64,000 nucleotides of DNA from a virus (IMGVR_UViG_3300025693_000001), one strand, 5' to 3'; counted from the first letter of the stretch, positions 10,762 to 56,834 are shown. Program-made: numbers and translations. Notes: generated from the sequence alone by a model not told the origin.

Positions 10762-10789
10762 AGTTATTCCGACTGTGTTGTTTGCTTAT

Positions 10790-11011
10790 TTATACCGAGG
10801 TATTTGAAGCTTTTCTGACCCACGCTTTATGAGAGGTGTAGTCATGGAAATGTAGTATACATGGAACATGGTATAAAGTCAGAGCCATAAGGGGGTGGGC
10901 GATTAAATCGTGAATAACAGCCCATACGATATGCTGCGTGAAGTTGACACAATATTTATTCGGATCTAATTTCATACAATTTGTGTGGTTACGATGGAGC
11001 CGAAGCTCCAC
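10790..11011 (-). CDS. hypothetical protein
   Basis: His-rich WAVIHDLIAHPLM..FHDYTS; start uncertain. Confidence 0.6.
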   Translation of the reverse strand: MELRLHRNHTNCMKLDPNKYCVNFTQHIVWAVIHDLIAHPLMALTLYHVPCILHFHDYTSHKAWVRKASNTSV

Positions 11012-19810: not shown

Positions 19811-20202
19811 CCTGGTTTTTCTTGGTCTATGTGACCATCTTTGTGCTCTGGTGGTGTATAGACTGCATAGAGTTTTAAGTCATCGTTATCGGATGTATTG
19901 ATAACATTATGCTCAACGCCCTCGGGTATAATGATAGCATCACCATCCTCAAGCGAAGATTCAACACCTCCCATGATAGCTTTACCAGTACCAGATTCAA
20001 CACGAATGAATTGATCACCCTTGTGCGTCTCCATACCAATTTCCTGGCCAGGTTTAACACACATTAACACAAGCTGCATATGAGCAGCAGTGTACACAAC
20101 TTTGCGATATAACTTGTTGTTTTCAGTGTCCTTTTCCATCTGGATGGTGAATCCAGATTTAGTATCGACACCTGCCAACTCGAGTAATCTAGTACGTTCC
20201 AT
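19807..20202 (-). CDS. cupin-domain protein
   Basis: QLVLM...GQEIG.ETH..DQF.RVE.G.G; IP.G..HNV.N; LY..Y.PPEH. Confidence 0.85.
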   Translation of the reverse strand: MERTRLLELAGVDTKSGFTIQMEKDTENNKLYRKVVYTAAHMQLVLMCVKPGQEIGMETHKGDQFIRVESGTGKAIMGGVESSLEDGDAIIIPEGVEHNVINTSDNDDLKLYAVYTPPEHKDGHIDQEKPG

Positions 20203-39447: not shown

Positions 39448-41757
39448 TTATGGTTGTGGTGTGCGATCATATAATGGTACATTAGCCACATTTACTTCTA
39501 TCGGTGTTGCAATTGGTGGTATGTTACCAGCGGAGAATACGAATTTGGTTGATGCCCTTCCGACCCGACCAACTTCTCGATATCCCCACGTCGATGGAGC
39601 CGGTGGATTGCCACCCGCTGTCCCATTTCCGTCATTTGCCTTGCCGCTATTAATGGATGCTGCTGGTATTGTGTATGTGTATGTCCGTCCACCTTCATCT
39701 GTTCCACCAATTATGGCTGCAAACAATGGAGTGTTAGCTCCACCATCACCATCAATCAACGTTACTGATGACTCAGCACCAGGGAACGATGAATAAAATG
39801 TTATGTGGGCATCTGTTACAGCAACACCAAACGGTGGGATAGCATCTGTCGACTGACCACTAAAATTAATCGGATTTGCGTCAGCGACTGTCAGCATCTC
39901 GCCAACCAACGACCCGATGTTACTCGCATTCGCCCCATCAACCAACACTGTAATCACACCCGAATCACTAGCCGTTCCAGCGTTTAGTTGTATTTGGAAC
40001 GCATAGGTAACAGCTGAACTCAATCCAGTTGGCATGCCTGGCCAGATTTGATCCGTGTCAGTCAGCACATCAACAACACCCATTGTTGCGTTCACTTCAA
40101 GAAAACCATACTCATCAGCGTATTGTTTAACACCATTCACGTACAGCTCCAAATTTCCGTAACCAGGCACATAATCATACCCCAAATCGCCGTGTGTACC
40201 AGATACTGAGTTTCCGATATCAACTTCACTAACACCTTTCGATGCTATTACCGCTCTATTCGGACGGCGAACCATATCACCGAGGGTCTTATTCAGATCA
40301 CCCAACACATTATCCAGAGGAATGTTTGGATATTCTGGATTGTCATAAAAAGCATGCTCAAGGTACAGATCGAACATCCCCTGAAACAGATTTGGTTGCG
40401 CAATTTGGTGGAATACCGAATCGGAGGTTGTTCCACCCGCAGCGAAACCAGCTACAACAATCTGTGGTAATCCGTTCGTTCTCGTTAGTGTTAATTCTTG
40501 ATTTATGTTATCGAAAAAGCCACCATTGACAACCCCATCACCCGATGCTGATATCGCACCAGCCAATTCAACATCAACGTATTCTTTCGTTGCTGCTTGT
40601 AAGTTTGTTGTTGGGTTGGAATTGAGGAACAAATTGCCAGACATTGTCCCACCTGTGGTGAATAGTACATTCGCGTTTGTTAAAAACGATGATGCTCCAA
40701 CATTCGTCCAAATGGCCCCATCGAATTGTAGCAGGTCATCCTCCGCGATGGGATCACCGTAAATGACATCATATAGATCTGTAACAATCGTGGGGATGGC
40801 AGCTTCTACATCAACCGCAACACCATCGACGTATGCTTTTGTTGCAGCGTCTTGTGCCGAAATCGGAGTTGTCACTCGTCTGATTAGGTTATCATTCATA
40901 TCGATTCCCACACCCCCACCAACAGCACTCACCATGGTGCCACCGGTCAACGGCAAGAATCCGGTATCACTACCCGTTTGGTTTCTCCAAATCGATCCAT
41001 CATATATCAACACACTACCCAATACTGGGGATGATAACTGAACATCTGTCAATTCGCCGAGTTCGTTGTTGGCAGCAATCTGCGTATCAACGTAACTTTT
41101 GTTTACAGCATCGCTTGTGTTGAATGGTGTTGCCAGATCAGTAACCGTAAATCCATTTGCTGATATGTCACCATACAATCCGGTGTTGTTCTGGATAAGA
41201 TATTCCCACCCCCCAATGTACTTACCGATTAGTCCCGATGGTGGTGCAGGTAACAACGACATTACTGTGTTACCGCTACTATCGATGGCAGATGTGGATA
41301 TCAGAAACTCACTCTGAGCATCTGTGGTACCAGCTTCAATGATCCGTAGTTGACTTCCAGGTACCAATCTAGCCGTCTCATCACCAACGATCGTAATGTA
41401 ATTGACAAGAGAATTGTGTGGAGCGACATTCGGTAGGATAACATGCTTACGTGTATTGAACACTCTCAGCACGTAGTCGTCTGTTGACCGGTCTAACCAC
41501 ACCTGCCCCCCGATCGGATATGTTGGTTCTATCGCACCAGCAAAATGCTCCATGGTGTGTAGGATATCTTCCTGTATTCGTTCGCCGTAGTTTGGTGAAC
41601 CCTTACCATGCAACAGCAAGCTTGTTGCAGCGGAAGCAGCTTTTGAGTCTAGTGTGTTGGTTGTTGGATTTTCTGGACCATTTGTAGTGTACGCGTTTAA
41701 CTGGAAACTGCGATTCTCATTTTTGTCAGTAAAATCAATTGTGTAGTTATTTGCCAT
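39448..41757 (-). CDS. tail fibre / baseplate-associated protein
   Basis: L.L.GKG..NYGE....E.FA, GQVW, repeated A(A/V)(T/N)K.YVD; CATAAATA upstream. Confidence 0.8.
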   Translation of the reverse strand: MANNYTIDFTDKNENRSFQLNAYTTNGPENPTTNTLDSKAASAATSLLLHGKGSPNYGERIQEDILHTMEHFAGAIEPTYPIGGQVWLDRSTDDYVLRVFNTRKHVILPNVAPHNSLVNYITIVGDETARLVPGSQLRIIEAGTTDAQSEFLISTSAIDSSGNTVMSLLPAPPSGLIGKYIGGWEYLIQNNTGLYGDISANGFTVTDLATPFNTSDAVNKSYVDTQIAANNELGELTDVQLSSPVLGSVLIYDGSIWRNQTGSDTGFLPLTGGTMVSAVGGGVGIDMNDNLIRRVTTPISAQDAATKAYVDGVAVDVEAAIPTIVTDLYDVIYGDPIAEDDLLQFDGAIWTNVGASSFLTNANVLFTTGGTMSGNLFLNSNPTTNLQAATKEYVDVELAGAISASGDGVVNGGFFDNINQELTLTRTNGLPQIVVAGFAAGGTTSDSVFHQIAQPNLFQGMFDLYLEHAFYDNPEYPNIPLDNVLGDLNKTLGDMVRRPNRAVIASKGVSEVDIGNSVSGTHGDLGYDYVPGYGNLELYVNGVKQYADEYGFLEVNATMGVVDVLTDTDQIWPGMPTGLSSAVTYAFQIQLNAGTASDSGVITVLVDGANASNIGSLVGEMLTVADANPINFSGQSTDAIPPFGVAVTDAHITFYSSFPGAESSVTLIDGDGGANTPLFAAIIGGTDEGGRTYTYTIPAASINSGKANDGNGTAGGNPPAPSTWGYREVGRVGRASTKFVFSAGNIPPIATPIEVNVANVPLYDRTPQP

Positions 41758-41796: not shown

Positions 41797-42246
41797 CTAT
41801 TTATGGAGGTTCGCGTTGGTAAAATAAGGATTCGGATTTAAGAAAAATTCTTGAAGGAAATAGTCGGTTGTTGCTTTGACTTGAGGCAAGTTGTATTGCA
41901 GACCGGTACCCAGTCGGGCGGTATTAATAATAGTATCGTATACGTCGGGATTCAGTTGATATGATTTGAAGTGCAAATCATTTCCAAACAGCAAGTTATC
42001 GTCCCGAATCGACGTATCAAACGGAACACCAAAATACAACTCCAGTAGATGCGAGTAAATGACAGCAACGGAATACGATTTAGCAGGGTATAGGATTTCG
42101 TGTGTAGCGTTACTAAAATAATCAATCGCGTGTTTAGCTAGTTGATCATCATCCATCTGTTTGACCGGCACATCAATGTTGACATCCGATGGATGTGGGT
42201 TCAAATGGTGGAATAGCTCCTGTCTTATTTTGTGGTCCGATACCAT
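41797..42246 (-). CDS. hypothetical accessory protein of the radical SAM operon
   Basis: last gene of the rSAM run, overlaps the upstream rSAM gene; YPAKSY motif. Confidence 0.7.
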   Translation of the reverse strand: MVSDHKIRQELFHHLNPHPSDVNIDVPVKQMDDDQLAKHAIDYFSNATHEILYPAKSYSVAVIYSHLLELYFGVPFDTSIRDDNLLFGNDLHFKSYQLNPDVYDTIINTARLGTGLQYNLPQVKATTDYFLQEFFLNPNPYFTNANLHK

Positions 42247-43163
42247 TCCAACAACCCCTTGAGTCCACTACACGATTCAACATCAAAGTTTTTAATTGGT
42301 CGCAAATGCTCACTCATGCACCTACCACGAAATTCACAATCACCACAATGTTTATTTGTATTGAATGTTAGATACTCATCCATTACCCACTTGAGGTAAT
42401 CAAACCAATCATACACTGGGAGGAAATACTCGTGGCCATTTCGATCAAATTCTAGTACAGCAAAGTCACCATCCGGTGTCACGTATATATGATCATCAGA
42501 CCAAGCATGACCCTTACCATCCAACACTCGGTTTATGTTCGATTCGGTAACAAATTCATAACCCCGTGACTCGATTGGACTTAATTCTATCCACCTGCGC
42601 ACAAATCCTTCATAATCTTTGAAAGATGTGTCATCGGTATTGGCTTGATTTGTTGAGTATGGTTTTATCTCAACAGATTGCAACTTGGGTAACGTGTTGC
42701 ACACCGATATAGCTTCCATCATTGTTGCATCGTCCCACTCAATCATTCCTTTGCTAGCCAACATAAGCACATGAAATGGTGTATCCAATGCCACCATGTT
42801 ATTCATGACTATGGTGTTTTGTTCACGTTCAGTGTAATCCCAGCTAACCGATAAATCGATATCAGGGCCTGACAACCACGCAGGAACGGTTGTTAGGTTG
42901 GTTATGACAGAAACCTTACCACTATAGTGGTTCCTGATTACATCGATGGTACCTTGTATATATTCACCGTCAAGCAATGTTATTTCACCACCATACAAAT
43001 CGACGTGGGTTATTTTCTTATATTTGGATATTTCTACCAACTTATCGTTCAGCACCGATAAGGGAAGCAACGTGGGGTCTTTTAGTTGGTCCTTGGATAA
43101 ATAACAAAACGAACAACGAAGATTACAACGCAAACAACTATTGATGGACACGGAAAATGACAA
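42225..43163 (-). CDS. radical SAM protein
   Basis: CNLRCSFC, LYGGE, TNL, C-terminal CxxC-x5-C..C; probable TTG start at 43163 with AGGTG RBS. Confidence 0.85.
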   Translation of the reverse strand: MSFSVSINSCLRCNLRCSFCYLSKDQLKDPTLLPLSVLNDKLVEISKYKKITHVDLYGGEITLLDGEYIQGTIDVIRNHYSGKVSVITNLTTVPAWLSGPDIDLSVSWDYTEREQNTIVMNNMVALDTPFHVLMLASKGMIEWDDATMMEAISVCNTLPKLQSVEIKPYSTNQANTDDTSFKDYEGFVRRWIELSPIESRGYEFVTESNINRVLDGKGHAWSDDHIYVTPDGDFAVLEFDRNGHEYFLPVYDWFDYLKWVMDEYLTFNTNKHCGDCEFRGRCMSEHLRPIKNFDVESCSGLKGLLEWYRTTK

Positions 43164-44044
43164 ACTATTACACCTATAAATTAATTGATCCCAGATCACA
43201 CAAACCCTTTTATGTTGGAAAAGGGAAAGGATCCAGAATGTACGAACATAAAACCAACCACTCAAAAAAACGTCACAAACGGTCAAACCCAATGAAGTGC
43301 AAACGTATTAAAGATATACTGGATGCGGGATATGATATTATATATGAGAAACACGAGATGTTCAACGAGGACGACGCATATGCAATGGAGAAACGGTTAA
43401 TCGAATCACTCGGGAAGATAATAGATGGGACTGGTATCCTTACCAACATCGCTGATGGAGGCTTGGGTGGTAACCCACCAAAAACACCAGTCGATCAATA
43501 CACACTTGGTGGCGACTTAATCGCGACATACTCATCCATCATTGACGCGAGTGAGCGAACAGGGATCAACGGACCAAACATATCATCGAGTATCACAAAC
43601 AGAAACACGAAAAACAAATCAGCCGGTGGATTTGTTTGGACGTACAGAGGGGCAGCATTCGCACCCCCATCACCAAAAACAAACTGCAAAACTGTGTTTC
43701 AATTTGACACCACCGGCTCGATAACAGCGGAATACCACTCATCCGCCCAGGCATCAACAGTGTCGGGTGTTGATCGAGCTGGAATCATTAAGTGTTGTAA
43801 CAGTACCCAACGAACCGCTGGAGGGTGGCGGTGGTCGTATGATGCAGTTGCACCAAAGAACACGAGAAAAAGCGAATCATTAACGAAACGTGTTTGTAGG
43901 CTGTCCCTGTCCGGTGGTATCACGATAGAGTACGAATCACTAAAGGACGCCAGTATAGCGAATAATATTCCAGTTTCTGGCATATCAACATGCTGTCACA
44001 ATCAGACCAAGTCGAGAGGTGGGTTTCGCTGGAAATTTATTTGA
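43157..44044 (+). CDS. GIY-YIG homing endonuclease with three NUMOD1 repeats
   Basis: YTYKLIDP..PFYVGKG..R..H, E..LI, LTN..GG; 3x V.Q....G.....Y.S...A....G.....I...C......GG(F/W).W. Confidence 0.88.
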   Translation: MTNYYTYKLIDPRSHKPFYVGKGKGSRMYEHKTNHSKKRHKRSNPMKCKRIKDILDAGYDIIYEKHEMFNEDDAYAMEKRLIESLGKIIDGTGILTNIADGGLGGNPPKTPVDQYTLGGDLIATYSSIIDASERTGINGPNISSSITNRNTKNKSAGGFVWTYRGAAFAPPSPKTNCKTVFQFDTTGSITAEYHSSAQASTVSGVDRAGIIKCCNSTQRTAGGWRWSYDAVAPKNTRKSESLTKRVCRLSLSGGITIEYESLKDASIANNIPVSGISTCCHNQTKSRGGFRWKFI

Positions 44045-45113
44045 ATCCTGGTTTGTTGGTTGGAATTTGATTTTTGTTTGTTTCTATGATATCAGAAGCT
44101 AGACTTTTCATCAACGTACAATGATCTTCAACGATGTTTTCATCTTTCATATCTTTGATGGTTTTGCGACAACCGTTGCAGATACTAAACATTGGACACG
44201 CATAACATTCTGTTTTTAATGCGGCGAGTGATAAATCATCATCCAGTGGAGTGGCTGGCGTATCCGAAGACATTTCTTTCTCGAAGTTAATCGGTTTGTC
44301 GCGATCATCACCAAAAGCCCCACAACTATAGAAATCACCACCTGGGTTTATGGCACGGATTCCCCGATCGCAGTTACGCGATTGTGGACAAGTGGTACTA
44401 CCTTCGTACAATCGACGTACCATTTGCTTGGTGTTGTATTCCCAATCAATTAGCCCCTCATTGTATACATCCAGATATATTTTATATATTTTCGATAACT
44501 GATATGATGTCGATAAATCGCCAGAGGCCATACCGTAATTAAGTTTACACTCAACCCCCATCCGTTTTGCTAATCGAACATTATCGATTGCGGTGTCTTC
44601 GTTTTCATCAGTGATAACAGAAATGAAATCCGGTCGGTATCCGATGTGTTCAAGAAATGAATTCGACACATCCCAAAAGTCGTTCTCGGTGAATACTCTA
44701 GTTGGTGTTATCCTACGGGTATCCCCATAATTAAACGACGTGGTAACACCAACGCGTTCATGTTTAAATAACTCGATCCATGGTGTAGGGTTTTTAAGAA
44801 AAGGCCACAGATTCGATGTAAACGATAACGTAGCTGGCATATCATTCGCATCCAAAAACGCAATTATATCCCAGTAGTATTTTGGTTTAATCATCATCGG
44901 ATCACCCCCGTTTATAATGAGGGTGTTCGTTTTTGGGTATTTGCGTAAAAACGTGAAGATGTATTCCAAATCAAGAACACGGAAATGTTGGTCCGATATC
45001 ATAGTTGAACTACAGAATGTACAAGCAAAATTGCAGGCTTCCGTGGGTTTAATGATGAACTCCATTGGAGCATTATGTTCGACTATTTTTATCTGATTAA
45101 GTTTTGTTATCAC
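44037..45113 (-). CDS. radical SAM/SPASM protein
   Basis: IIKPT..CNFACTFC, NGGDP, SPASM-type Cys set (CPQ..C, SC, CxxC-x5-CxxC, C). Confidence 0.9.
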   Translation of the reverse strand: MITKLNQIKIVEHNAPMEFIIKPTEACNFACTFCSSTMISDQHFRVLDLEYIFTFLRKYPKTNTLIINGGDPMMIKPKYYWDIIAFLDANDMPATLSFTSNLWPFLKNPTPWIELFKHERVGVTTSFNYGDTRRITPTRVFTENDFWDVSNSFLEHIGYRPDFISVITDENEDTAIDNVRLAKRMGVECKLNYGMASGDLSTSYQLSKIYKIYLDVYNEGLIDWEYNTKQMVRRLYEGSTTCPQSRNCDRGIRAINPGGDFYSCGAFGDDRDKPINFEKEMSSDTPATPLDDDLSLAALKTECYACPMFSICNGCRKTIKDMKDENIVEDHCTLMKSLASDIIETNKNQIPTNKPGFK

Positions 45114-46297
45114 AAAATACCTTTACTGTGTGCGAATTCATGGTGTTTTTTGTTCCCTTGAGCTATCTCATCTGCGGTGGTATATCCACCCCAGTCGTAT
45201 ATATCATACGTCAAGTTTCCCATATTCTTCGGGTACATATCAAGGACTTTTTTTGGTAACATACAATCCACGATGTCGTACTGTTTCATATAATATAGCA
45301 CGTGTCTGGATACACACGTATCCAAATAGCGACAATCCTCACACTCGGTGGTACCAGATGCATACGCATATTGGGTTTTTTTCGATTCGGTAGCCATCGC
45401 AATCAAATCATCAACCGTGTATTCACCGTCGTGTGGCACTTTAAAAGCTTCCGTCGTGTTTGCAACATTCTCATGTATGAATGGACTCAGATATACTTCA
45501 CCGTCAGACAAAATCCAATTTGAATAGTTGTGTCCACCATGAGACCAATCTGCCACAACCATTTGAATGTCTAACCGATTGGATGGGGTTACTTGACGCT
45601 CAAGCTCGTTATTCCAGTGCCGGATCATGGTTCTAACTGTTCTGGGTTCATGCGAACGAAAGAACGATGGGTTGTAATCTATGATCGTATTAAACTGGTC
45701 CATAGCCAACAACGACATAGTATGCAACGATATCCCTGTCAATTTTTGGATATTAATCTGCATCGTGTAACAGACTCTTGCAGACATAGCATCGAATAAT
45801 CGTATTTTGTGTTTGAGATCGTCCAGGTAATCTTGGTTGTCGGTATTGAATTTTTTCGGATGCACAACTACCTGAATTTCAAACTCCATATATTCGTGTG
45901 GATAATACTCATTAAACAATTCAATAAAATCTAGAATCGTTTGATCATCACACATTAGTGTGGTCGGGATGGCAAAAATAGGTTTATGCTTGGCCATAAA
46001 TTGCTGGAGTTTTGGTTCCATCAACAACTCTTTTGCATTTACAGCTCCGAAGAAGTCAACCGGCCCAATTACAAGCTCATCGAATAGCATACCCGCGTCA
46101 TTAACCTCTTGGGCCAACTTCTCGAGAAGATCCAAATCTCGTTGTGTGTATGGAGTGTTACCTTTGTTGACGAAGCAACCCCGACAGCTATGCACGCAAG
46201 TGGTCAGAAAATCTGCAGTAGCTCTGTGGGCTACTACAGGTTTTGTTGCTGTCTCTGATGTTTTTTCGTAAAGTAAATTATTTGTTATTATCGGCAC
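45110..46297 (-). CDS. divergent radical SAM protein (paralog 3 of 3)
   Basis: CVHSCRGC; GPVDFF; PSFFR; CxxC-x5-C..C. Confidence 0.8.
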   Translation of the reverse strand: MPIITNNLLYEKTSETATKPVVAHRATADFLTTCVHSCRGCFVNKGNTPYTQRDLDLLEKLAQEVNDAGMLFDELVIGPVDFFGAVNAKELLMEPKLQQFMAKHKPIFAIPTTLMCDDQTILDFIELFNEYYPHEYMEFEIQVVVHPKKFNTDNQDYLDDLKHKIRLFDAMSARVCYTMQINIQKLTGISLHTMSLLAMDQFNTIIDYNPSFFRSHEPRTVRTMIRHWNNELERQVTPSNRLDIQMVVADWSHGGHNYSNWILSDGEVYLSPFIHENVANTTEAFKVPHDGEYTVDDLIAMATESKKTQYAYASGTTECEDCRYLDTCVSRHVLYYMKQYDIVDCMLPKKVLDMYPKNMGNLTYDIYDWGGYTTADEIAQGNKKHHEFAHSKGIL

Positions 46298-47417
46298 AAC
46301 GTTTTATGCGGGCAGTGGTTGAAGGGGTGGTGCTTGTGTTGTATAAGTCCAGAATTTCTTTTGGATATACACACTCGGTTATGTCTTTTGCTTCCATGAA
46401 ACTCAGCACATTTCTACCAACACACGTTGGTAAGTAGTGACAAGTTGTACACTCATCCGTCTTAGTCACGTACGCAAACTGTTCGGCTATTAGCCTGTGG
46501 TTTGTATCCATCACTTCATCAACGGTTGTTCCAGTTTCCATCGAAGGATAATCGAATAATATCTGTTCATATATAAACGGACTGATGAACATTTTATTTT
46601 TCTTGTAATTAACTACAATCGTATTCATCACATTGTGACTTTGATCAGCTATAGTTAGCATGATATCTTTGTAGTTTGCTTCTGAAATTGTGGCACGTAG
46701 AAACTCTTTCCACACATCCAGGTGAGCTGATATTAACTTATCATTACCCGTACGAAAGAACGATGGTAAGAATTCAATAATAGTATCAAACTGTTCACGA
46801 ACGATTTGAGTTATCTTATCGTAGTGTGTAATCATATCGACGTCATGATGCACGTTTACAGCGAATGACCAATCCACCACTTTTGGTGTTTCATGCTTGA
46901 GATAATGCAGAGCTTTGCTAAAATCTTTGTAGTATTGTTCGTCTCCACTCAACAACAAGTCAACATCCAACGGCACCAACAACTCGATAATCATATCCGA
47001 TCTGTATTTTGATGGGTCATCCAATATAGCAAAAACGGCATCCCATTGTTCTTGGTCGACTTTATGGAACATCGCAGTTGTTGTTATTCTGGTTTTGGGG
47101 TGTATGCTTAACAATTCTTGAAACTTTGGATTGTCAAGAACTTCAACAGCATTCGATGCACTGAATATATCTGTTGGCGAAATGATAACCTCGCGGAACC
47201 GTAGCCCACGTTCGTTCATGTTATGTGCTAGTGTTAATGCAGCATCCAAATCAACATCGTTGATATCGTTGCGTCGGTTTACGAAGCAACCAGGGCAAGC
47301 ATGCGCACAATCACGCAATACTTCAAGATTTAATACAAAATCCATGGTGTGATCGTCCCATCCTGCGGCAACATTGGGGGTGCTTTGTAGTGTAAATAAG
47401 TTTGGTTCAATGCTCAT
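46278..47417 (-). CDS. divergent radical SAM protein (paralog 2 of 3)
   Basis: CAHACPGC; SPTDIF; PSFFR; CxxC-x5-C..C. Confidence 0.8.
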   Translation of the reverse strand: MSIEPNLFTLQSTPNVAAGWDDHTMDFVLNLEVLRDCAHACPGCFVNRRNDINDVDLDAALTLAHNMNERGLRFREVIISPTDIFSASNAVEVLDNPKFQELLSIHPKTRITTTAMFHKVDQEQWDAVFAILDDPSKYRSDMIIELLVPLDVDLLLSGDEQYYKDFSKALHYLKHETPKVVDWSFAVNVHHDVDMITHYDKITQIVREQFDTIIEFLPSFFRTGNDKLISAHLDVWKEFLRATISEANYKDIMLTIADQSHNVMNTIVVNYKKNKMFISPFIYEQILFDYPSMETGTTVDEVMDTNHRLIAEQFAYVTKTDECTTCHYLPTCVGRNVLSFMEAKDITECVYPKEILDLYNTSTTPSTTARIKRCADNNK

Positions 47418-47456
47418 GTGGGTAGATTCTCCTGAAAGCTGTGGTATATGTGCGTG

Positions 47457-47464
47457 TATTTATA
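47457..47464 (-). promoter_or_regulatory. T4-type late promoter TATAAATA inside the rSAM operon
   Basis: exact box in the only sizeable intergenic gap between operon genes, 40 nt before ATG 47417. Confidence 0.6.
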
Positions 47465-47503
47465 CTAATAGATCATCTACTATACCCAACCCATCACGAT
47501 AGG

Positions 47504-48622
47504 TCAAATATATTTGGTGCCATCCCATATGTTATCTCTCGGAACGATGCAATCTATTAGATCTCGACTCTCCATGTAAGCTATAACATTACGACCAATA
47601 CAAGACGACAACAGATTACAATGTGCACACCCTGTTGTCTGTGAGGCGTACATATACTGAGATGTGACTAACTCTCCTAGCTTTTTTGTGATATCATCTG
47701 CTGTGTGTGGTTTATCGATCTTGAATATTTCATTTGTTTGAGGTATACCATCAAACAAATACGGCATCACATACAAATCTCCATCCTTGTACGATAGGTT
47801 TATGAAGCCCTCACCACCAAAATATTTATCAAACATATTGAAACTCACGTACTCAGGTAGTGGTTCGTCTGGTGGTAATTGTGCAACTAGCATAGTTTTA
47901 AACGCAGACACCCGACGTTCCACCATGTCAGTTGAATTCGATCGAAAGAAACTTGGTATGATCCGTAATGGCACGTTAAACTCTTCGTGTATCTTTTCTG
48001 CTACCGCAAGTAACGTAGTACCATTAAACATCTGGTCGTGATAATTAACCACAAACACCACGGTATCCTTTGCAAATAAGCACAAATGTTCGGTAAGTTT
48101 ATCGATGTATTCCCGATCGTTACTCAGGTATTTCGCCAGATCAAACGCAACAAACAACTCAAAGTCTCGAGCTGCTGCATTGTTCAAATGTTTTTGCAGG
48201 GTGTGCCATCTCATCTTTAGCGTTCTGGTATCGCACATCAGGGTGGAGCTAGCACTAAGGGAGAAATTTGATGTAAGTTCATACATCAGAGGATTGTCCA
48301 TTATCTCGTCGAAATTCGTTGCTGTGAAAATATCCGTTGGTCCGATGAATACTTCTTCGCACGCCACAGACATACTTTGAAGCGTATCAGCGATTGCAAT
48401 GGCTGACGATATGTCGTCTGGAGTACATGTGTTCCGTCTGGGTATGTAACACCCAACACAATTGAAAGCGCATCCATCTAGTATGTCCAATACCAGTTCG
48501 GACCGTAGCATATCCGTGTATTGTAGTTTTGCGGGATTGTGTGGTCCGATCGTTGCGGATCCGATATCACCAATATTGACACCATCTGATAGTGTTTCTT
48601 TTTGGTAGGTGTTCATTTTCAT
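47504..48622 (-). CDS. divergent radical SAM protein (paralog 1 of 3)
   Basis: CAFNCVGC; GPTDIF; PSFFR; CxxC-x5-C..C. Confidence 0.8.
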   Translation of the reverse strand: MKMNTYQKETLSDGVNIGDIGSATIGPHNPAKLQYTDMLRSELVLDILDGCAFNCVGCYIPRRNTCTPDDISSAIAIADTLQSMSVACEEVFIGPTDIFTATNFDEIMDNPLMYELTSNFSLSASSTLMCDTRTLKMRWHTLQKHLNNAAARDFELFVAFDLAKYLSNDREYIDKLTEHLCLFAKDTVVFVVNYHDQMFNGTTLLAVAEKIHEEFNVPLRIIPSFFRSNSTDMVERRVSAFKTMLVAQLPPDEPLPEYVSFNMFDKYFGGEGFINLSYKDGDLYVMPYLFDGIPQTNEIFKIDKPHTADDITKKLGELVTSQYMYASQTTGCAHCNLLSSCIGRNVIAYMESRDLIDCIVPRDNIWDGTKYI

Positions 48623-49734
48623 TGGGTGGTACGTATCCCCTTTGTTGTGTAGTCAAAAAATGCACGCATGGTGCAATCACTCATGTTTCTATCTCTAATT
48701 TTCCAATCATGCTGGGTAAAACATCTAAATCCACACCGCTTGAAGTATTCACACGATAAGCAACCATGCTCATCCATAAAGTTCTGCATCATCCCAGCAT
48801 TATCGGCTTTATTGTAAGTGGTAACAAAATCGGATTGATCATATCGGTTCCATCTACAATTCGATGTTGAACCATCCGGAAATATTGTTATTTTGTTTAA
48901 CGACAAACAATGCATCTGGTTTTCGGTATTCTCGATCAGTTCTCGTATTGGTGATATCAGTGGGTAGTTATCCGCCACAAAAGTATACCAATCATATATC
49001 ATCCGATCGGATGGAATCTCATCACTAAAACCTTTATCCGGAATGTAGTCATCGAAGTACACCGGAAATGTTGCGTATAGCCACTTGAAATACTCATCAC
49101 CATCTTGCATAAAATTGGTGATGGACGATACCGTACCGACACAATTGATAGACAAGATGTATTCTGGTCCAAAAAACTTCACATTGTCTCGGTATCGATT
49201 CGACATAGGACGTCCATCAAAATCGTATGATGCAATCAGATGGGTGTCAATGTTTAATGATCGCATCCGATCGATAAGTGACTTTACCAGCTCGATTTTT
49301 TTAAACAGAAAATTACTAACCCACACGACTTTCATTGTGTGTCCATACAAATCGAATATGGGTTTCAGTTTCTGCATCAATCGCCAATATGCGTCAATTA
49401 ACTGCTCCATTTGTTGATCTTGGAATAATTCACCACCAACCACATTGATCTGCATATAGTCGACGGTATTCTGTTTCTCTTTCAGAAATTGTTCTATTGT
49501 TGGTATCTTATCAAACATATCCTCGTCCGACATACCAACAATAGAATCTTTATCATGGTGACAAAAATCACACACGATGTTGCAGTTTTCGAACAACGTT
49601 AGTTCGATTTCTCCATTAACGGGACGTTTCGTCTCTAATATTTGCTTGGTTGTATCGGATGGGACTGATGGTGTAATTCCAATTGCCGTAATATCAGCAA
49701 TTGGAATTATGGGGATAGTCTTATACTGCGTCAT
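48619..49734 (-). CDS. radical SAM/SPASM-like protein
   Basis: CNIVCDFC, VGGE, SN, C-terminal C..C..CLSC-x5-CGFRC..C. Confidence 0.87.
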   Translation of the reverse strand: MTQYKTIPIIPIADITAIGITPSVPSDTTKQILETKRPVNGEIELTLFENCNIVCDFCHHDKDSIVGMSDEDMFDKIPTIEQFLKEKQNTVDYMQINVVGGELFQDQQMEQLIDAYWRLMQKLKPIFDLYGHTMKVVWVSNFLFKKIELVKSLIDRMRSLNIDTHLIASYDFDGRPMSNRYRDNVKFFGPEYILSINCVGTVSSITNFMQDGDEYFKWLYATFPVYFDDYIPDKGFSDEIPSDRMIYDWYTFVADNYPLISPIRELIENTENQMHCLSLNKITIFPDGSTSNCRWNRYDQSDFVTTYNKADNAGMMQNFMDEHGCLSCEYFKRCGFRCFTQHDWKIRDRNMSDCTMRAFFDYTTKGIRTTQ

Positions 49735-50494
49735 CTGGTATTGGTAGCATTGCCTGCATATCGATCATCAGTTGTTTAATCTTATCGCCCGCCACTGTAT
49801 CACCGGCGTCCATTTCAGCGGCAAGAGTTATTAACCCAGCGTAAGCGCTTTTGTCGTTGAACACGTACGAGAATATATTACCACCGTTGAACATATATTC
49901 ATCAAAATACCGCGTGTAGTATATTTGATCGGATAATGGAATGTTTGTGCATAAGTAAGCCATCAGAAAATCTTTAATAGTAAACAACTTAACAACGGAG
50001 TATCCGATCTCATCAAATTGTTCATCAGTGACAGTAGTAATTAATGTATCATGCAGTGGTCCAAATTCTTCTCCCTCACCGGCACCTAGCTTGGTTAACA
50101 TGTACAGGGGGATGGAATTAACAAATGCCATCTGTGGTATCAACAAAGAGTGATGCTGTGTTGCAAAGTCGATACACTCATCGATGGACCACAAGTGGGG
50201 ATGATCAGTATAAAACATGTCGCCATGCTTGGCTAATCCTAAAATATTCGCATGTGTAATCTTTAAGTTTTGCACTTCTGAAAATTCCTTAAGCCGCATG
50301 TACTCATCCATGAGTTCGTGCGTGATCACGTCAATGTTGCAATTCAGCCCCAAATTAGCAATGTACATTAATAGAAATTTCGGATTTGATAGATTTGCAA
50401 GTGATGCATGATAATCTATCAAATATGCCTGGTTTTTATCCTTAAAGAATTCCACCATATCGGTGGGTGTTAATGGTAATACTATTTTTTCCAC
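49721..50494 (-). CDS. hypothetical accessory protein of the radical SAM operon
   Basis: 257 aa; GTG start with AAGG RBS; overlaps the next gene. Confidence 0.75.
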   Translation of the reverse strand: MEKIVLPLTPTDMVEFFKDKNQAYLIDYHASLANLSNPKFLLMYIANLGLNCNIDVITHELMDEYMRLKEFSEVQNLKITHANILGLAKHGDMFYTDHPHLWSIDECIDFATQHHSLLIPQMAFVNSIPLYMLTKLGAGEGEEFGPLHDTLITTVTDEQFDEIGYSVVKLFTIKDFLMAYLCTNIPLSDQIYYTRYFDEYMFNGGNIFSYVFNDKSAYAGLITLAAEMDAGDTVAGDKIKQLMIDMQAMLPIPDDAV

Positions 50495-50510
50495 TTATGG
50501 TACCTTCGTG

Positions 50511-51725
50511 TTATTGTGTTCTTCGTTTCTTCGGTTCACTCCAAAGACTTGGAATGGTCGTAGATGCAAACTGAGAGTATGATTTAACTGAATCGATATT
50601 AGCCATCATTGCTTTTTTTGTTTTGAATTTATCAGACGTAACGATTATTTCATCGTTATCATCGACCAGTTCCCACATCCATTTATCAGCTATGTGTTTG
50701 GTTACAAACGTACCGGCAGTTTCTTCACCAGTCGGATACAATGTAGTCAATAATAATGTGTTAAATTTCTGTCCCGCTCCACTTATAAAATCGTGCTGAG
50801 AGAATGGTATAATGTTATTGATGACCAAGTCAACGTCACTCGTCTCAAACAAACGGTAGAATAAATCGTGTTCATACAAATGTCGTGGGTGTTCCTCGGG
50901 ATAATCAATATCATTCGTCACGCACAATCTAGTCCAATCTTTGATCCGTTCCAACAACACAGGGTCATTGAAGTCCAGACTCTTTGGGTTAAAGAACAAA
51001 GCTCGTAGTAGTGCATTGTTTTCGATGGCAGCGATGGCCTCACCGATGGAATCCAAAGAATCAGCACCCAAGAATGTAGCCAAGACCTTGCGATCAATAG
51101 CCATGTCGTTCCTGATATTGAGAGTGACCGCATGCACCAGACCTCGCAACATGGGTGTAGCAATTGCTGACACTTTTGTGTCGGCTATTGATTTTTCTAT
51201 GTATCCATTTTTGTACAGATACAATACATACTCCAATGGTAGGTCTTGTGGGTTATCCACCAAACCACCAACTGCCGTATACAAACCTGGTTTCAGCAAT
51301 CGGTATGCATCACCGATATCGTATGTAACAGGTCGCCCAACGAAGTAATTTTTTAACTGTTGAATGCTTAACAATTCCGTCATGTGCTCTTCAGATATTG
51401 CATACCGTACTTGCAGCTCTATCAACATCATGGCAAACAATCGAGCATAGTCATCATCACGCGATACGACTATCCATAATTTGGTTTCTGTGCTTAACCA
51501 ATTATAAAAATCGGTATCACTTCCATTGAATTCCAACGCTATCATTTCCAGATAGCTGTTGAACTGCATCACCACCCCTTTTGCGTTGGGGTTATTTGCA
51601 TCCGCTCTAATCATTTCATCAATAGGTGTATCACTCGGTGTTAACACCACTGTGCGGTGTTCACCTGATAGAACGTGAACATCCTCGGGATATGTCACAT
51701 AAATGCTGTTTCGTATATTGAACAT
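50511..51725 (-). CDS. hypothetical accessory protein with C-terminal YegP/DUF1508-like domain
   Basis: start MFNIRNS, TAATG-coupled to the precursor; C-terminal W.W.L...N.EII.TS..(F/Y)..K......I.SVK. Confidence 0.7.
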   Translation of the reverse strand: MFNIRNSIYVTYPEDVHVLSGEHRTVVLTPSDTPIDEMIRADANNPNAKGVVMQFNSYLEMIALEFNGSDTDFYNWLSTETKLWIVVSRDDDYARLFAMMLIELQVRYAISEEHMTELLSIQQLKNYFVGRPVTYDIGDAYRLLKPGLYTAVGGLVDNPQDLPLEYVLYLYKNGYIEKSIADTKVSAIATPMLRGLVHAVTLNIRNDMAIDRKVLATFLGADSLDSIGEAIAAIENNALLRALFFNPKSLDFNDPVLLERIKDWTRLCVTNDIDYPEEHPRHLYEHDLFYRLFETSDVDLVINNIIPFSQHDFISGAGQKFNTLLLTTLYPTGEETAGTFVTKHIADKWMWELVDDNDEIIVTSDKFKTKKAMMANIDSVKSYSQFASTTIPSLWSEPKKRRTQ

Positions 51726-52309
51726 TAGCGTCTTCCTCTTGCGCTGTGGCACACACTATGGCAACTGCTGTGGCAATAGCTAATTGTGGCATCTGTTTTG
51801 TTTGAATTTGTGGTAATAACGCCACGCAATGATGCTATTACAGCCTCATAATTTGAGCGATCGATGGAATCTGCATTCCCAATGTTGTCATATGCTCCGC
51901 CTGGTGCACCATCACTAGCCGTTAACACGCCTGGACTGGTTTTATATGCGGTCCGAGTGTAATCTGCTTTCACACCCGAAGTATTTCCATTGCCCCATGA
52001 TGATCGTCTGCGGTGGAATGTAAATATTCGCGTCTTACTGTACAAACTCAGAAACGAATTTAGCGTTGCTACCAAATTACCACTACCAACGCTACTCGTC
52101 AACGATGATGTAGCGATGTTTGTTGGTATTGACACTCCCAGTGATACACCAGTAGCAGCTGCTCGCGATACATCAGTGCTATTTGCAATAGCAGGTGATC
52201 CAGGGGTTAATTCAGTAGTCGCTTGTTGACGTAGTGTTGTAACACCACCCACAGCTGATGTTGAGCTTATCAACCCACCCCATATTGTTTTTGTTATTTC
52301 ATTTGCCAT
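51725..52309 (-). CDS. candidate rSAM substrate: Ser/Thr-rich protein with C-terminal (CHSx)3-RGRR
   Basis: ends YCHSSCHSVCHSARGRR; all three Cys are in this tail; directly downstream of an rSAM/SPASM gene. Confidence 0.75.
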   Translation of the reverse strand: MANEITKTIWGGLISSTSAVGGVTTLRQQATTELTPGSPAIANSTDVSRAAATGVSLGVSIPTNIATSSLTSSVGSGNLVATLNSFLSLYSKTRIFTFHRRRSSWGNGNTSGVKADYTRTAYKTSPGVLTASDGAPGGAYDNIGNADSIDRSNYEAVIASLRGVITTNSNKTDATISYCHSSCHSVCHSARGRR

Positions 52310-52321
52310 GTTGCAATCCTT

Positions 52322-53401
52322 TTATTCCTGTCCCATAAACCCACCTAGTATTGTTTTATACAGGGGTATATCGTTATCGTTTTTCATTTTGGTCATCATG
52401 GTTTTTGGTGCAGCACACACGTTACCTTGCCAAGCCAATTGGTGACAATCACCATTACACACGTCATATACCGGACAAATAGAACAAGCTGGATGTCTAA
52501 TTATCTCAGCGGATATGTTACACATTCTACCTTCGCTAGTCATCAGAGCCTCGACGTCGTCGTGGATCGTACCAAATGTGTTGTCTACGGCTGAGTTTGG
52601 GCAGCCTCCGATTGATCCATTTGCGTTGATGGTTAGTATCTTTTGTTCACACTCTCGGCACCGACACCCTGCATGTGCATTGTGTACTAAACTCGTTAAT
52701 ATTGAATCGAAAAACATGTTATCGATAAATTCCCAAGTCTTGTGTTCCAGTGTTTGTTCCCACAACTTCAAAAACCACATATCTAGCGCTTCATTCGACG
52801 GCATTATACCCTGTTCAATGAATTGCAATGCGTTACCATTTGGGGTTACTCGCTCGAAGTTAATGTGGTTAATACCAAGGCTAGCCATATCACGTATAAT
52901 GTCAATTGGCTCCATGTGATTTACAACATCACCAGACAGGCAAACCATTACCGTGATATCATACCCATCGTCAGTTAGCTGTTTCACATTATCTCGCCAC
53001 AGCTGTTCTTGTTTCGGTTTTGGCCATCGGATATTCTTGTCCCAAGAGGTACCAAACGATTTCCCACATATTTCATCAAACACGCGAATTTTATCCGGTG
53101 TCAGTGGATAGGTCAGGTTCGTTTGCACTGACCACCATATGTTTGGCCATAAGTCCTTTACCCCATTCCAAACATCGAATAGTTTTTCGGTGGGAGCGAG
53201 CATCGGCTCACCACCATGGAACGATATGTTACCATGGTCATAGTTCGGGTTGTATTCGTGCAAGCGTTTGAAGAATGCTACAGTTGCGTCAACATCGAAC
53301 CACCCCTTTCGCCCATTGTGACCATTAGTAAAGCAGTGGTCACAATGCAGGTTGCAGGTATCGGTGGTTTTTAAGTAACACATGAAATCGTTAGTTGCCA
53401 T
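52322..53401 (-). CDS. radical SAM/SPASM maturase
   Basis: LKTT.TCNLHCDHC, FHGGEP, QTNL, SPASM C..C, GCPN, CxxC-x5-CxxxC..C. Confidence 0.92.
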   Translation of the reverse strand: MATNDFMCYLKTTDTCNLHCDHCFTNGHNGRKGWFDVDATVAFFKRLHEYNPNYDHGNISFHGGEPMLAPTEKLFDVWNGVKDLWPNIWWSVQTNLTYPLTPDKIRVFDEICGKSFGTSWDKNIRWPKPKQEQLWRDNVKQLTDDGYDITVMVCLSGDVVNHMEPIDIIRDMASLGINHINFERVTPNGNALQFIEQGIMPSNEALDMWFLKLWEQTLEHKTWEFIDNMFFDSILTSLVHNAHAGCRCRECEQKILTINANGSIGGCPNSAVDNTFGTIHDDVEALMTSEGRMCNISAEIIRHPACSICPVYDVCNGDCHQLAWQGNVCAAPKTMMTKMKNDNDIPLYKTILGGFMGQE

Positions 53402-53417: not shown

Positions 53418-54584
53418 TTATGCAGAATACAGAGCTGGCCACACTTGGACCCATCCTGTTCCCGCTAAGTACATTTGTATTGTTGCTCCAACCGCTTGAG
53501 TATCCCCTGTTTGAGCGGGTTGCCCTTTGCCGGTCGGATTGTATTGCATAAAATCACCAGCAGCAACTTTATCATCTACATAACCCTTCGTCGATGCTTC
53601 ATACGTTGATACTGGGTGTCTACCTAATGTTAGCGTTGCTGATCCATTCATAGAATCACCAGCTCGACTGATCTTATCGTTCAGTTGCGTTTGAACATTA
53701 CTGGTCAACCCAACGTTAAAATTTGTTTCACTTGCCGTTAGTGTTGGTAGATCCAACGCATCCAAGTAAGCGTTCTGCAACGATGTTAGATGAACAATTT
53801 CGTCGGATAAATGGGTTCCCATATCCCCAACAAAGTCGTCAAACGCTTTTTTGTGCATTGCATCATATGGATCAACAGGATCACCCAAATTGATAATTCG
53901 GTGTCTCGCTGTAACTCCAGCATCATCCCCACCCATATCCAATTCACCACTCATCCAATCACCACACTGTCGTAGAAAACTTTCTCCGACTAACACGAAA
54001 CCATCAGGAGCCGCTTCAGTGTGGTTTGGGTTGTATATCTTCAATAGTGGTTCAGTGATACAACCATTTGTATCTCCAGCGATACTGGTATCATACCACA
54101 AATCCCCAACTGTTGGGTTTGCGGGTTGTGCGGTGTTAACATATATACCAGATGTTACCTTCCATAATGGTACAGGTGGGTTATTTTCAACCCCCAGATC
54201 ATCCAATATGTCTGCGTCATACACGTATAACAACCGACTAGTAACATTATACCACAATTGCCCGTCGAGGGGAACTGTTATCCCATTTCCTGGTCCCAAA
54301 TCATTCGCATCTTTGGGTAGAATGGGGCTTGTTGTTGGGTCATAATCATATGACCCAGTAGATGGATTGTAATCACCTGCTTGTTTTTCAGGGCAGTTGA
54401 AATTCTCTGCCAACCTATAGACGTTCTCGTCCATTCCCTCACCCCACTGTAATGCTCCCATGCCGTATAACCGCATGTCACTGTCGTGGTGTGTACTTCC
54501 AGGGCCATTCAATGCTCCTGGTTTTATAGTAAGACTTTTTGAAGAAGCTCCATCTGTACTATCGATAACATAAACTGTTGCCAT
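53418..54584 (-). CDS. tail fibre / baseplate-associated protein
   Basis: LYG.G...WGE...EN.YRL.ENF, GQLWY, GDLWYD, STKGYVD; CATAAATA at 54623-54616. Confidence 0.8.
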   Translation of the reverse strand: MATVYVIDSTDGASSKSLTIKPGALNGPGSTHHDSDMRLYGMGALQWGEGMDENVYRLAENFNCPEKQAGDYNPSTGSYDYDPTTSPILPKDANDLGPGNGITVPLDGQLWYNVTSRLLYVYDADILDDLGVENNPPVPLWKVTSGIYVNTAQPANPTVGDLWYDTSIAGDTNGCITEPLLKIYNPNHTEAAPDGFVLVGESFLRQCGDWMSGELDMGGDDAGVTARHRIINLGDPVDPYDAMHKKAFDDFVGDMGTHLSDEIVHLTSLQNAYLDALDLPTLTASETNFNVGLTSNVQTQLNDKISRAGDSMNGSATLTLGRHPVSTYEASTKGYVDDKVAAGDFMQYNPTGKGQPAQTGDTQAVGATIQMYLAGTGWVQVWPALYSA

Positions 54585-54618: not shown

Positions 54619-55197
54619 TTATGCGGTTATAGAATCCAACAAATTACCAAAGTCGGAAATAGCTGTTTTTATTTCCGTGCTTGTTGCTGACGCATTAATA
54701 GCGACTTGTGTTTGTAACCGATATTGTTCCACTAAAACATTATACCCCAACGTGGCATTATACTCAGCTATAATATCATCAGCAGCAGCTGTTGCTGTTT
54801 TTGATAATGCTATAACATCCCCCGCTATGAATGGGTATGGTGTTGTATCAACAGGATATCCAGCGGCTTTATATGCTAGAGCTTGTGTATTCTTTTCCAA
54901 ATATACCAAATTCTGAATAGCATGTTGAGTGATTTGTTGCGTGCGATGTTGTTCTGCAGATGCATTGATACTCGATATTGCTAGTACCTTATCTGCCGCC
55001 AGTGTGTAGTTGGGATCATCTATTTCCACCCACGGTCCAACACCATTCGTGTACGTAACTAACTTACCCTTACCAACGGATATTGGTTTTTCGATTGTGT
55101 ATCCTGCTATACCAGTTTTATTAGTAGCAGATCGTGATACTCCAACGTACGTGTAATCGGTTGTGTCGAATTTATAAAATGTGTATATAGTGATCAT
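54619..55197 (-). CDS. probable tail-fibre assembly chaperone
   Basis: start reassigned to MITIYTF (ATGA-coupled to the fibre gene); helical C-terminal half typical of fibre-adjacent chaperones. Confidence 0.6.
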   Translation of the reverse strand: MITIYTFYKFDTTDYTYVGVSRSATNKTGIAGYTIEKPISVGKGKLVTYTNGVGPWVEIDDPNYTLAADKVLAISSINASAEQHRTQQITQHAIQNLVYLEKNTQALAYKAAGYPVDTTPYPFIAGDVIALSKTATAAADDIIAEYNATLGYNVLVEQYRLQTQVAINASATSTEIKTAISDFGNLLDSITA

Positions 55198-56789: not shown

Positions 56790-56834
56790 AGGATTCGTAT
56801 TCCTCAAAGTATTACGATATCCCGTATTTATACG

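Follow-up and report, generated by a model that had tools for sequence, protein, structure and literature searches.

What use could a large phage have for seven radical S-adenosylmethionine (rSAM) proteins encoded around a single small protein that ends in a Cys/His repeat? This question is raised by a gene cassette at positions 41797-53401 on the minus strand of a 64,000-nt stretch of the viral sequence IMGVR_UViG_3300025693_000001, the whole of which is here called the window. Reading from 53401 to 41797, the cassette consists of rSAM_A, the tailed protein, P0003, P0004, rSAM_B, rSAM_C1-3, rSAM_D, rSAM_E and P0011, and all eleven open reading frames (ORFs) listed by a first-pass annotation made from the sequence alone were found in place on this strand. 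We consider it reasonably probable that the cassette matures the tail of a virion-associated protein, and that the protein then joins the particle, probably as part of the host-recognition apparatus. Most likely, the locus provides for an as yet undescribed step in which enzymes finish a protein of the virus particle close to the tail fibres.

The candidate substrate is P0002 (51725..52309, minus strand; 194 aa), which had been singled out as a (CHSx)3 protein and does end with CHSSCHSVCHSARGRR, all three of its Cys residues being located in the last 16 residues. The 16 tail codons, for CHSS-CHSV-CHSA-RGRR, occupy 51728..51775 (minus strand) and are followed by the stop codon at 51725-51727. 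In the AlphaFold2 (AF2) prediction (mean predicted local distance difference test score, pLDDT, 81.8; predicted TM-score 0.79), P0002 is modelled as a confident alpha/beta body with a poorly ordered, flexible tail (pLDDT 49-60, weakly predicted helix). The model gave no Foldseek PDB hit at E<=0.001 and a best VIA wide Z of 4.6, and P0002 belongs to no Pfam or NCBIfam family. The same ending was found on the barely alignable proteins of the cultured phages Atu_ph07 (296 aa) and RSL2 (186 aa), each encoded directly after an rSAM_A homologue. In 56 aligned homologues, all three C-H pairs and RxRR are fixed, with body identity falling to about 20%.

A degenerate 51-nt DNA pattern for CHSSCHxxCHxxxxRR plus stop (about 44 bits) matched at least 118 viral loci, as well as 22 loci in prokaryotic assemblies (genome_contigs, 596 Gb) versus about 0.07 expected, a recurrence far beyond chance. 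Because the pattern fixes most tail residues by construction, synteny and profile checks independent of it were relied on. A profile search with the whole protein among 1.84 billion representatives revealed 875 clusters (50% identity) at E<=1e-3, 650 of which reach E<=1e-10, and the matches mostly run end to end over the tailed protein; the best 148 family representatives include 145 with (CHxx)3, 132 with RxRR and 102 with a Cys-free body. A word-indexed protein search with P0002 returned only 9 close relatives, the wider family being visible through the DNA pattern and the profile search. In 149 distinct tail DNAs, the Cys, His, Ser and Arg codons are all used about evenly and synonymous sites are saturated, and position 13, which the pattern leaves free, is Arg in 149/149. 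Since the codons vary freely while the residues are fixed, these alignments indicate that selection acts on the tail peptide and not on a nucleic-acid element. They also point to (C-H-x-S/N)x3 as the true tail core, the basic RxRR end being usual and dispensable. Variants of the tail were observed that carry (CHxx)3 and a single Ile/Leu instead of RGRR (L161-L187), that miss the third Cys (CHSSCHSSHSSRNRR; L156-L158) or that are doubled to six CH units (L082, L083), and 127-aa tailed genes occur in tandem (L012, L036, L085, L104).

The co-occurrence of the tail with the rSAM genes, which had been suggested as a check, proved to be near-absolute and in conserved order in both search directions. 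In the forward direction, homologues of the window rSAM genes were found within the fetched stretch in 105 of 109 tailed viral loci, and in the four others the stretch runs out one or two genes from the tail; the same linkage was observed in the 22 genome loci. In the reverse direction, with loci fetched by rSAM_A homology alone, the next gene carries a (CHxx)-type tail in 59 of the 70 loci with a complete downstream ORF (29 ending in (CHxx)3-RxRR, 27 in (CHxx)3 plus a single Ile/Leu, and 3 without the third Cys), and in the remaining 11 that position is taken by another cassette gene. The genes usually come in the order rSAM_A, the tailed gene, the P0004 family ('unk4'), family X (roughly 350 aa), rSAM_B, rSAM_D, rSAM_E, none to several rSAM_C and the P0011 family ('unk11'). 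In a second layout, one or two 127-aa tailed genes stand directly behind a giant ORF and precede as many as six rSAM_C genes; in locus L104 the rSAM genes total ten. The first-pass annotation pointed to similar clusters in other jumbo phages, and cultured carriers were indeed identified (Atu_ph07, with four rSAM genes; RSL2, with five, and RSF1; FLC6/8; SURPRISE13; pPa_SNUABM_DT01; and Phosso), but the organization is not confined to jumbo phages and is also present in Bdellovibrionota chromosomes. Judged from sequence, hundreds of phages and some predatory bacteria carry a nearly invariant tail.

Considerable diversity was observed around this core. Many cassettes elsewhere have a cupin gene before rSAM_A and 2-oxoglutarate (2OG) oxygenases, and in the RSL2-type cassette (L002 20027-21176 and 22264-25555) two dihydrofolate-reductase-like and four cupin/2OG-oxygenase-like genes are interleaved, which mixes O2-dependent and O2-sensitive enzymes in one block. 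In the window, the only cupin/2OG oxygenase match is marginal and far off, at 19807-20202 (E 7e-4), and the window therefore represents an all-rSAM version; the genes that fill the rSAM_D-rSAM_E gap elsewhere have no counterpart in the window. In the literature, the cassette genes were found only in annotation lists, with no functional description.

As for the enzymes, a window ORF scan together with Cys patterns bore out the seven proteins with CxxxCxxC and C-terminal Cys clusters. An N-terminal CxxxCxxC is present in exactly seven window ORFs of at least 150 aa, all on the minus strand, its first Cys being C16 in rSAM_A (P0001, 52322..53401, 359 aa), C51 in rSAM_B (P0005, 48619..49734, 371 aa), C51 in rSAM_C1 (P0006, 47504..48622, 372 aa), C37 in rSAM_C2 (P0007, 46278..47417, 379 aa), C34 in rSAM_C3 (P0008, 45110..46297, 395 aa), C27 in rSAM_D (P0009, 44037..45113, 358 aa) and C56 in rSAM_E (P0010, 42225..43163). 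The full SPASM (PF13186) pattern of seven or eight C-terminal Cys (Cx9-15Gx4C ... Cx2Cx5Cx2-3C ... C) was found in P0001, P0005 and P0009; P0006-8 and P0010 carry only its Cx2Cx5C...C half, which is invariant in families A4 and A5 and amounts to a partial SPASM/twitch Cys set in rSAM_E. Only P0001 (31.1 bits) and P0009 (31.3 bits) pass the Pfam Radical_SAM (PF04055) cut-off of 29.5, with P0010 at 28.6 and P0006-8 sub-threshold (E 0.04-0.07), and the SPASM model TIGR04085 (cut-off 27) scored 27.1 bits for P0001 and 24.5 for P0009. The rSAM_A family has 43 invariant columns across 41 homologues, 8 auxiliary Cys among them. Its closest solved full-length relative is the anaerobic sulfatase-maturating enzyme (anSME; 4K36-4K39, E 7e-9, residues 12-318), and its best full-length relatives all act on peptides or proteins (anSME, DynA, DarE, PapB and CteB). 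Both rSAM_B (phrog_1802, 2e-26), with homologues in Atu_ph07, RSL2 and most loci, and rSAM_D, the best-conserved cassette member (52-57% identity to cultured-phage homologues), belong to the core set, as does rSAM_E (phrog_1802, 7.5e-32).

The three divergent proteins P0006-8 had been described as paralogues, and the comparison agrees (26-31% identity, E 3e-40 and 2e-48, the latter for P0008 with P0007 at 31%; P0006 matches phrog_31457). The rSAM_C family keeps CxxxCxGC and four C-terminal Cys without exception in 29 members, and has IGPTD at the GGE position. Profile-profile comparison with the rSAM_A family gave a probability of only 12%, and the Atlas model of P0007 matched bacterial rSAM/SPASM clusters with TM 0.58-0.66 over about 300-330 residues; on the basis of these models, P0006-8 are probably unusual members of the radical SAM superfamily. 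A quick-search tree of 98 sequences, with long branches, placed C1 in its own clade with other-phage orthologues (SH-like approximate likelihood ratio test, SH-aLRT, 97), C2 in a clade of 22 that contains other-phage orthologues and Bdellovibrionota members (SH-aLRT 100), and C3 as sister to a 13-member clade (SH-aLRT 94). The tree argues for old paralogues with separate, retained roles rather than a recent amplification. We also considered that one rSAM_C paralogue might serve each CHxx repeat and rejected this, as the repeats are nearly always 3 and the paralogues range from 0 to 6; Atu_ph07 has three CHxx repeats and zero rSAM_C genes.

Two further proteins are conserved partners. P0004 (49721..50494, minus strand; 257 aa; phrog_20767, 5e-25) is non-enzymatic-looking, and its family is present in most of the 109 loci and adjoins the tailed gene in nearly all. 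Its AF2 model (pLDDT 85) is mostly helical, with no Foldseek PDB hit at E<=0.001, a best VIA wide Z of 4.5 and nothing above 0.87 in an Atlas look-up; the only invariant residues of the family are P, Y and G, and a predicted complex with P0002, each with its family alignment, scored 0.00, which is informative neither way. P0011 (41797..42246, minus strand; 149 aa; phrog_20737, 2.9e-22) is a conserved terminal gene product, homologous to RSL2 ORF081 (3e-12), and its gene comes after rSAM_E in many loci. P0003 (50511..51725, minus strand; about 404 aa), with a C-terminal DUF1508 (PF07411, 34.8 bits), was rejected as a core member, its homologues being found in the two closest loci only. It stands in the neighbourhood where other cassettes have family X, which the window lacks, and could be its distant counterpart; hhalign of P0003 to family X gave a probability of only 1%.

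Evidence on the fate of the tailed protein comes from Atu_ph07, the particles of which have been analyzed by electrospray ionization tandem mass spectrometry; Table S5 of that study lists gp170 at 31.89 kDa, with 8 unique peptides and 35% coverage (PMC6102473). We found that gp170 (L001 15053-15943) is the tailed protein, its computed mass of 31,894 Da matching the tabulated 31.89 kDa, and the gp numbering agrees because the masses of gp176 and gp177 match too. The rSAM proteins gp171, gp168, gp165 and gp164 and the P0004 homologue gp169 are absent from the particle list (PMC6102473). As gp170 is in virions without the enzymes, a structural-protein target is favoured over a secreted peptide, as had been proposed; what stands is the residence of gp170 in the particle, while the residence of P0002 and its modification are only what we infer. 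In addition, gp170 was recovered from gel slices 1-9 with its peak in slice 1, at the top, where proteins of 87-139 kDa peak, and the loading buffer as described held no reducing agent (PMC6102473). This high apparent mass may be due to disulfides, an option left by such a buffer, to oligomers resistant to sodium dodecyl sulfate or to enzymatic cross-links.

The genomic context also points to the host-recognition region. The cassette was said to sit between tail-fibre genes, and fibre-like genes do lie on both sides, but in the window this assignment comes from weak, short PHROG matches. The downstream neighbour (39448..41757, minus strand; 769 aa) matches tail-fibre PHROGs 2710 and 11393 at about 4e-9 to 2e-8 and no Pfam family, and the upstream neighbour (53418..54584, minus strand; 388 aa) has a phrog_15511 N-terminal domain. 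This domain (residues about 30-125) is common to 39448-41757, 53418-54584 and 55194-56807, all on the minus strand, and may serve alternative fibres as a shared module for attachment. In diverse loci, 9 of 10 sampled upstream neighbours have a C-terminal domain matching phrog_22593 and tail-fibre phrog_19602. A hidden Markov model (HMM) of this domain, which spans about 110-130 aa and has no Pfam family, found matches in 60 loci (L013, L022, L034, L035, L038, L039, L051, L015, L097 and L001 10605-12428 among them), including that of Atu_ph07 gp176, which was likewise detected in virions, with 14 peptides; the window, RSL2 and the Bdellovibrionota loci gave none. Similarly, rSAM cassettes inside a host-recognition cluster have been reported from pelagimyophage metagenomes (PMC7029224).

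Of the 22 genome matches, at least 13 come from Bdellovibrionota assemblies; contigs of 1.29, 2.45 and 2.84 Mb are among them. In a Bacteriovoracaceae chromosome, the cassette lies among everyday bacterial genes, such as those for a DinG-like helicase, matrixin peptidases and signal peptidase II, and a gene for a 2355-aa RCC1-repeat/Big_2 protein (L144 1865-8932, minus strand) comes after the tailed gene and unk4; rSAM_A of this cassette is 59% identical to that of the window, a higher value than for any cultured phage. The cassette of a Halobacteriovoraceae chromosome, with a 2OG oxygenase and a JmjC cupin among its genes, is flanked by genes for serine dehydratase and an Mrp/NUBPL ATPase, and abuts a gene for a 413-aa protein with a Peptidase_S74 fibre-chaperone domain (L145 7764-9005, minus strand), which recalls the trimeric fibre adhesins of Bdellovibrio (PMC10769870). 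In roughly 40 kb around either bacterial cassette, no other window phage genes were found except a phosphoribosyl pyrophosphate (PRPP)-synthetase-like one in Halobacteriovoraceae. This relative (L146 9235-10179, E 1e-91) of the window gene at 9805-10761 (minus strand; phrog_619) lies about 9 kb from the cassette and is probably a host-type housekeeping gene. Because the other window phage genes do not recur around the bacterial cassettes, gene content indicates that the cassette travels with fibre- or adhesin-type genes in viruses and predators.

Taken together, we propose that the phage would make P0002 as a small folded protein with a flexible tail, (Cys-His-x-Ser/Asn)x3 followed by RGRR. 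Inside the infected cell, the tail would be acted on by the four core rSAMs, of which A, B and D have SPASM clusters and E has a partial set. The rSAM-like paralogues, which diverged anciently and vary in number, with three in this cassette, would also participate, and P0004, P0011 and perhaps P0003 would assist the enzymes. The finished protein would enter or attach to the particle, probably together with the fibres for host recognition, and leave the enzymes behind. We infer both that P0002 itself is virion-borne and that its tail serves as the substrate; the tail is favoured as the enzyme target because of the Cys-free body, the near-absolute linkage and a low-confidence tail extending from a confident fold. 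For the chemistry, our best guess is radical H-abstraction at Cys/Ser/His, leading to thioether-type cross-links or to Cys/Ser oxidation, and such chemistry could hold an oligomer together or produce a tip that binds metal or is reactive.

Several points weigh against this proposal. No modification has been observed on any cassette member, and Cys/His at i, i+4 and i+8 would also form a plain metal site with no enzyme needed. The sole virion evidence comes from a preparation purified with polyethylene glycol that also held replication proteins, and gp170 shares with P0002 the tail and about 22% body identity; the RSL2 counterpart is annotated as hypothetical, with neighbouring genes marked as virion structural. 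The fibre assignment of the window neighbours is weak, and the fibre C-terminal domain of other loci is absent. Finally, the rSAM_C paralogues lack GGE and are placed in the superfamily by fold-level evidence only, and rSAM_A lacks the Asp after the third auxiliary Cys of anSME, so that anSME chemistry is not simply transferable.

The metal-site argument can be extended to an alternative of its own, in which the tailed protein carries no covalent modification and the tail is a plain metal or Fe-S site, its three Cys and three His sharing a helical face and perhaps stacked as the layers of a trimer; the rSAMs would act on another target, for instance the fibre proteins nearby or a small molecule, with the tailed protein as scaffold, carrier or adaptor. 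A period-4 Cys/His arrangement suits helical metal sites, the units are almost always exactly three, the tail is weakly predicted as helix, large fibre proteins are encoded directly upstream in many loci, and the top-band peak of gp170, with no reducing agent stated, could reflect a metal- or disulfide-held oligomer. However, a plain metal site leaves unexplained both the conserved fourth-position Ser/Asn with R-x-R-R and the fact that in bacteria as in phages rSAM_A is translationally coupled to the tailed gene, and the nearest relatives of the core enzymes have peptide chains as substrates. On balance we regard it as unlikely.

Less probable still, and in our judgement quite improbable, is a pathway for a ribosomally produced peptide with post-translational modifications (RiPP) or cofactor, in which the 178-residue body is an oversized leader and the 16-residue core is modified and cut off as a free peptide, cofactor or metallophore, as for pyrroloquinoline quinone (PQQ) and mycofactocin. 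Several SPASM rSAMs do surround a short invariant C-terminal core; PqqA/PqqE and MftA/MftC likewise pair a SPASM rSAM with such a core, and the cupin and 2OG oxygenases of some cassettes are what multi-step cofactor routes contain. But there is no peptidase, RiPP recognition element (RRE) or exporter in the window or in the conserved core, and the body is confidently folded, belongs to a family conserved over its full length and, in Atu_ph07, is found in particles. The first-pass annotation recognized no RRE/PqqD, peptidase or exporter either, and none was detectable in any cassette protein by Pfam, NCBIfam and PHROG scans; a structural RRE was not seen in fold searches with P0004, though empty fold searches do not exclude one.

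That the rSAMs are auxiliary metabolic or nucleic-acid-modification genes only incidentally linked to the tailed protein is very improbable, since the two dihydrofolate-reductase-like genes of RSL2-type cassettes, the QueE-like rSAM elsewhere in the window and the treatment of phage rSAM genes as metabolic in earlier papers (PMC2853527) stand against a linkage held across hundreds of divergent loci and bacterial chromosomes, dihydrofolate reductase being absent from the window and most loci and QueE lying 20 kb away and unrelated to the cassette families. The Campylobacter phage rSAM genes of that work (PMC2853527) showed no detectable relation to P0001/P0009 by tblastn in the phage collection.

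If the maturation proposal is correct, 10 kb, with up to ten rSAM genes in relatives, would be spent on 16 residues of the phage's own particle-associated protein, which would put this chemistry to a new use. Maturation by radical SAM enzymes has been described for secreted peptides, a few enzymes such as sulfatases and, as of 2026, a single bacterial antiphage effector. The family is spread over soil, freshwater and marine phages and predatory bacteria, usually in the host-recognition region, and the cassette may therefore bear on the attachment or entry of large phages and Bdellovibrio-like predators into Gram-negative cells. We give a low though appreciable chance to a bolder idea, namely that a non-proteinogenic structure built by enzymes, perhaps a Cys/His 'tip' that is cross-linked or bears metal, is common to phages and predatory Bdellovibrionota; it would stand at the end of a small fibre-associated protein, be made by up to ten rSAMs and be needed for engaging or breaching the Gram-negative envelope. 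If true, it would be the first radical-SAM-matured virion component and an attack device common to viruses and bacterial predators. A puzzle is posed by oxygen-sensitive enzymes in phages of aerobic plant-associated bacteria, sometimes together with O2-dependent cupin/2OG oxygenases. The existence of cultured carriers makes the question directly testable.

The gene run at this locus had been described as co-oriented and tightly coupled; the tight junctions were confirmed, but the run is not wholly co-oriented. Junctions are overlaps or few-base gaps (TAATG at P0002/P0003, ATGA at P0005/P0006 and GTGA at P0008/P0009), with 12 nt between rSAM_A and the tailed gene, 16 nt between the upstream fibre-like gene and rSAM_A, and 39 nt between P0011 and the downstream fibre-like gene; P0003 probably starts at the ATG at 51725, its ORF being open to 51752. 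The 745-bp interval between rSAM_D and rSAM_E is filled by a GIY-YIG/NUMOD homing endonuclease gene on the opposite strand (43157..44044, plus strand; PF22945 42.4, PF22083 30 and PF07453 26.6 bits, all above cut-offs). This gene is free-standing, overlaps the rSAM_D stop by 8 nt and abuts the probable rSAM_E start, with both neighbours intact, and is a mobile passenger outside the system. The rSAM_E ORF is open to 43292, and homologues begin 11-18 residues ahead of CxxxCxxC; with the endonuclease gene in this space, the start of rSAM_E is most likely near 43163 (TTG) rather than at 43292.

The window is that of a large T4-like phage, as seen from the surrounding genes, which include rIIA/rIIB, a clamp loader, helicases and a QueE-like rSAM; the contig recorded for P0002 has 324,905 bp. 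Megablast of the whole region against cultured phages gave no match. The T4 late-promoter word TATAAATA is not enriched (4 in the window versus 4.8 expected). On the minus strand it occurs at 47457-47464, 56825-56832 and 10787-10794, each 18-40 nt upstream of a minus-strand gene start, and the genes behind these three words encode P0007, a fibre-like 537-aa protein and the PRPP synthetase-like protein. The QueE-like gene (22815-23777, minus strand; phrog_2076, 1.7e-47), an eighth radical SAM gene outside the cassette, suggests 7-deazaguanine chemistry in this phage; its product has no standard CxxxCxxC in the first 130 residues.

Comparison with known systems places the cassette near several of them. 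It departs from the classical RiPP layout of a short leader-bearing precursor with RRE/PqqD, peptidase and exporter, the candidate precursor being a folded protein of 194 aa. The anSME/AtsB enzyme (TIGR03942; PDB 4K36-4K39) resembles rSAM_A as a compact rSAM with full SPASM and no RRE, and it targets a folded protein; moreover, Cys and Arg are as far apart in the last tail unit, C-H-x-S-R, as in the sulfatase motif C-x-P-x-R. However, P0001 and P0009 scored 52.8 and 38.8 bits against the anSME cut-off of 349.45 and thus fall outside the family, and the substrate motif C/S-x-P/A-x-R differs from the last unit of P0002, C-H-x-S/A-R, which has no Pro/Ala at the third place and no sulfatase domain with it. 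In the 4K37 profile alignment, C276-D277-F278 of the C. perfringens anSME stands opposite the invariant C267-P268-N269 of the rSAM_A family, and Asp277 was reportedly proposed as the general base by Goldman et al. in 2013. There is one rSAM gene for anSME versus four to ten in the cassette, the candidate target of which is a C-terminal repeat.

A second group comprises the Cys-repeat thioether systems, such as SCIFF/CteB, PapB (freyrasin), the CXXX-repeat system (TIGR04114/04115) and QhpD on QhpC. Here SPASM rSAMs act on Cys at every fourth residue, and CteB (5WGG) and PapB are among the rSAM_A matches. These matches cover the generic rSAM core only and are far below family cut-offs, and the thioether acceptors (Asp, Thr or Asn at defined spacing) are not conserved in the cassette tail, where His is invariant instead. 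With TIGR04114/04115, P0002 and P0005-P0010 had no match at E<=0.01, and neither model is among the best 25 of 40 P0001 matches (the weakest at 3e-4), so that a P0001 match, if any, would score far under a cut-off. QhpD cross-links a whole protein. The same has recently been reported of a methanogen enzyme (PMC13692751). By analogy with these systems, thioether formation at the tail may be guessed at.

The nearest functional analogue is the HXS antiphage system, in which HxsA is matured by the rSAM proteins HxsB/HxsC with HxsD at His-x-Ser (Li et al., Nat Commun 2026, PMC13128918). Both have several rSAMs, a small helper and a protein-sized basic effector, and the cassette tail can be read as C-[H-x-S]x3 followed by RGRR. 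The HXS effector has tandem His-x-Ser repeats, is exported to the periplasm and carries a peptidoglycan-binding domain (PMC13128918), whereas the cassette tail has period 4 with invariant Cys, and no peptidoglycan-binding domain was detected in P0002. Among the HXS models TIGR03976-03979, the sole match was P0009 with HxsC, at 23.2 versus 267.9 bits and in the N-terminal core, with none for P0002, P0004 or P0011. Thus, as far as family models indicate, the cassette stands outside the anSME, HXS and CXXX-repeat families; HXS is a periplasmic defence factor, while the cassette is phage-encoded and one counterpart of its tailed protein is associated with the particle.

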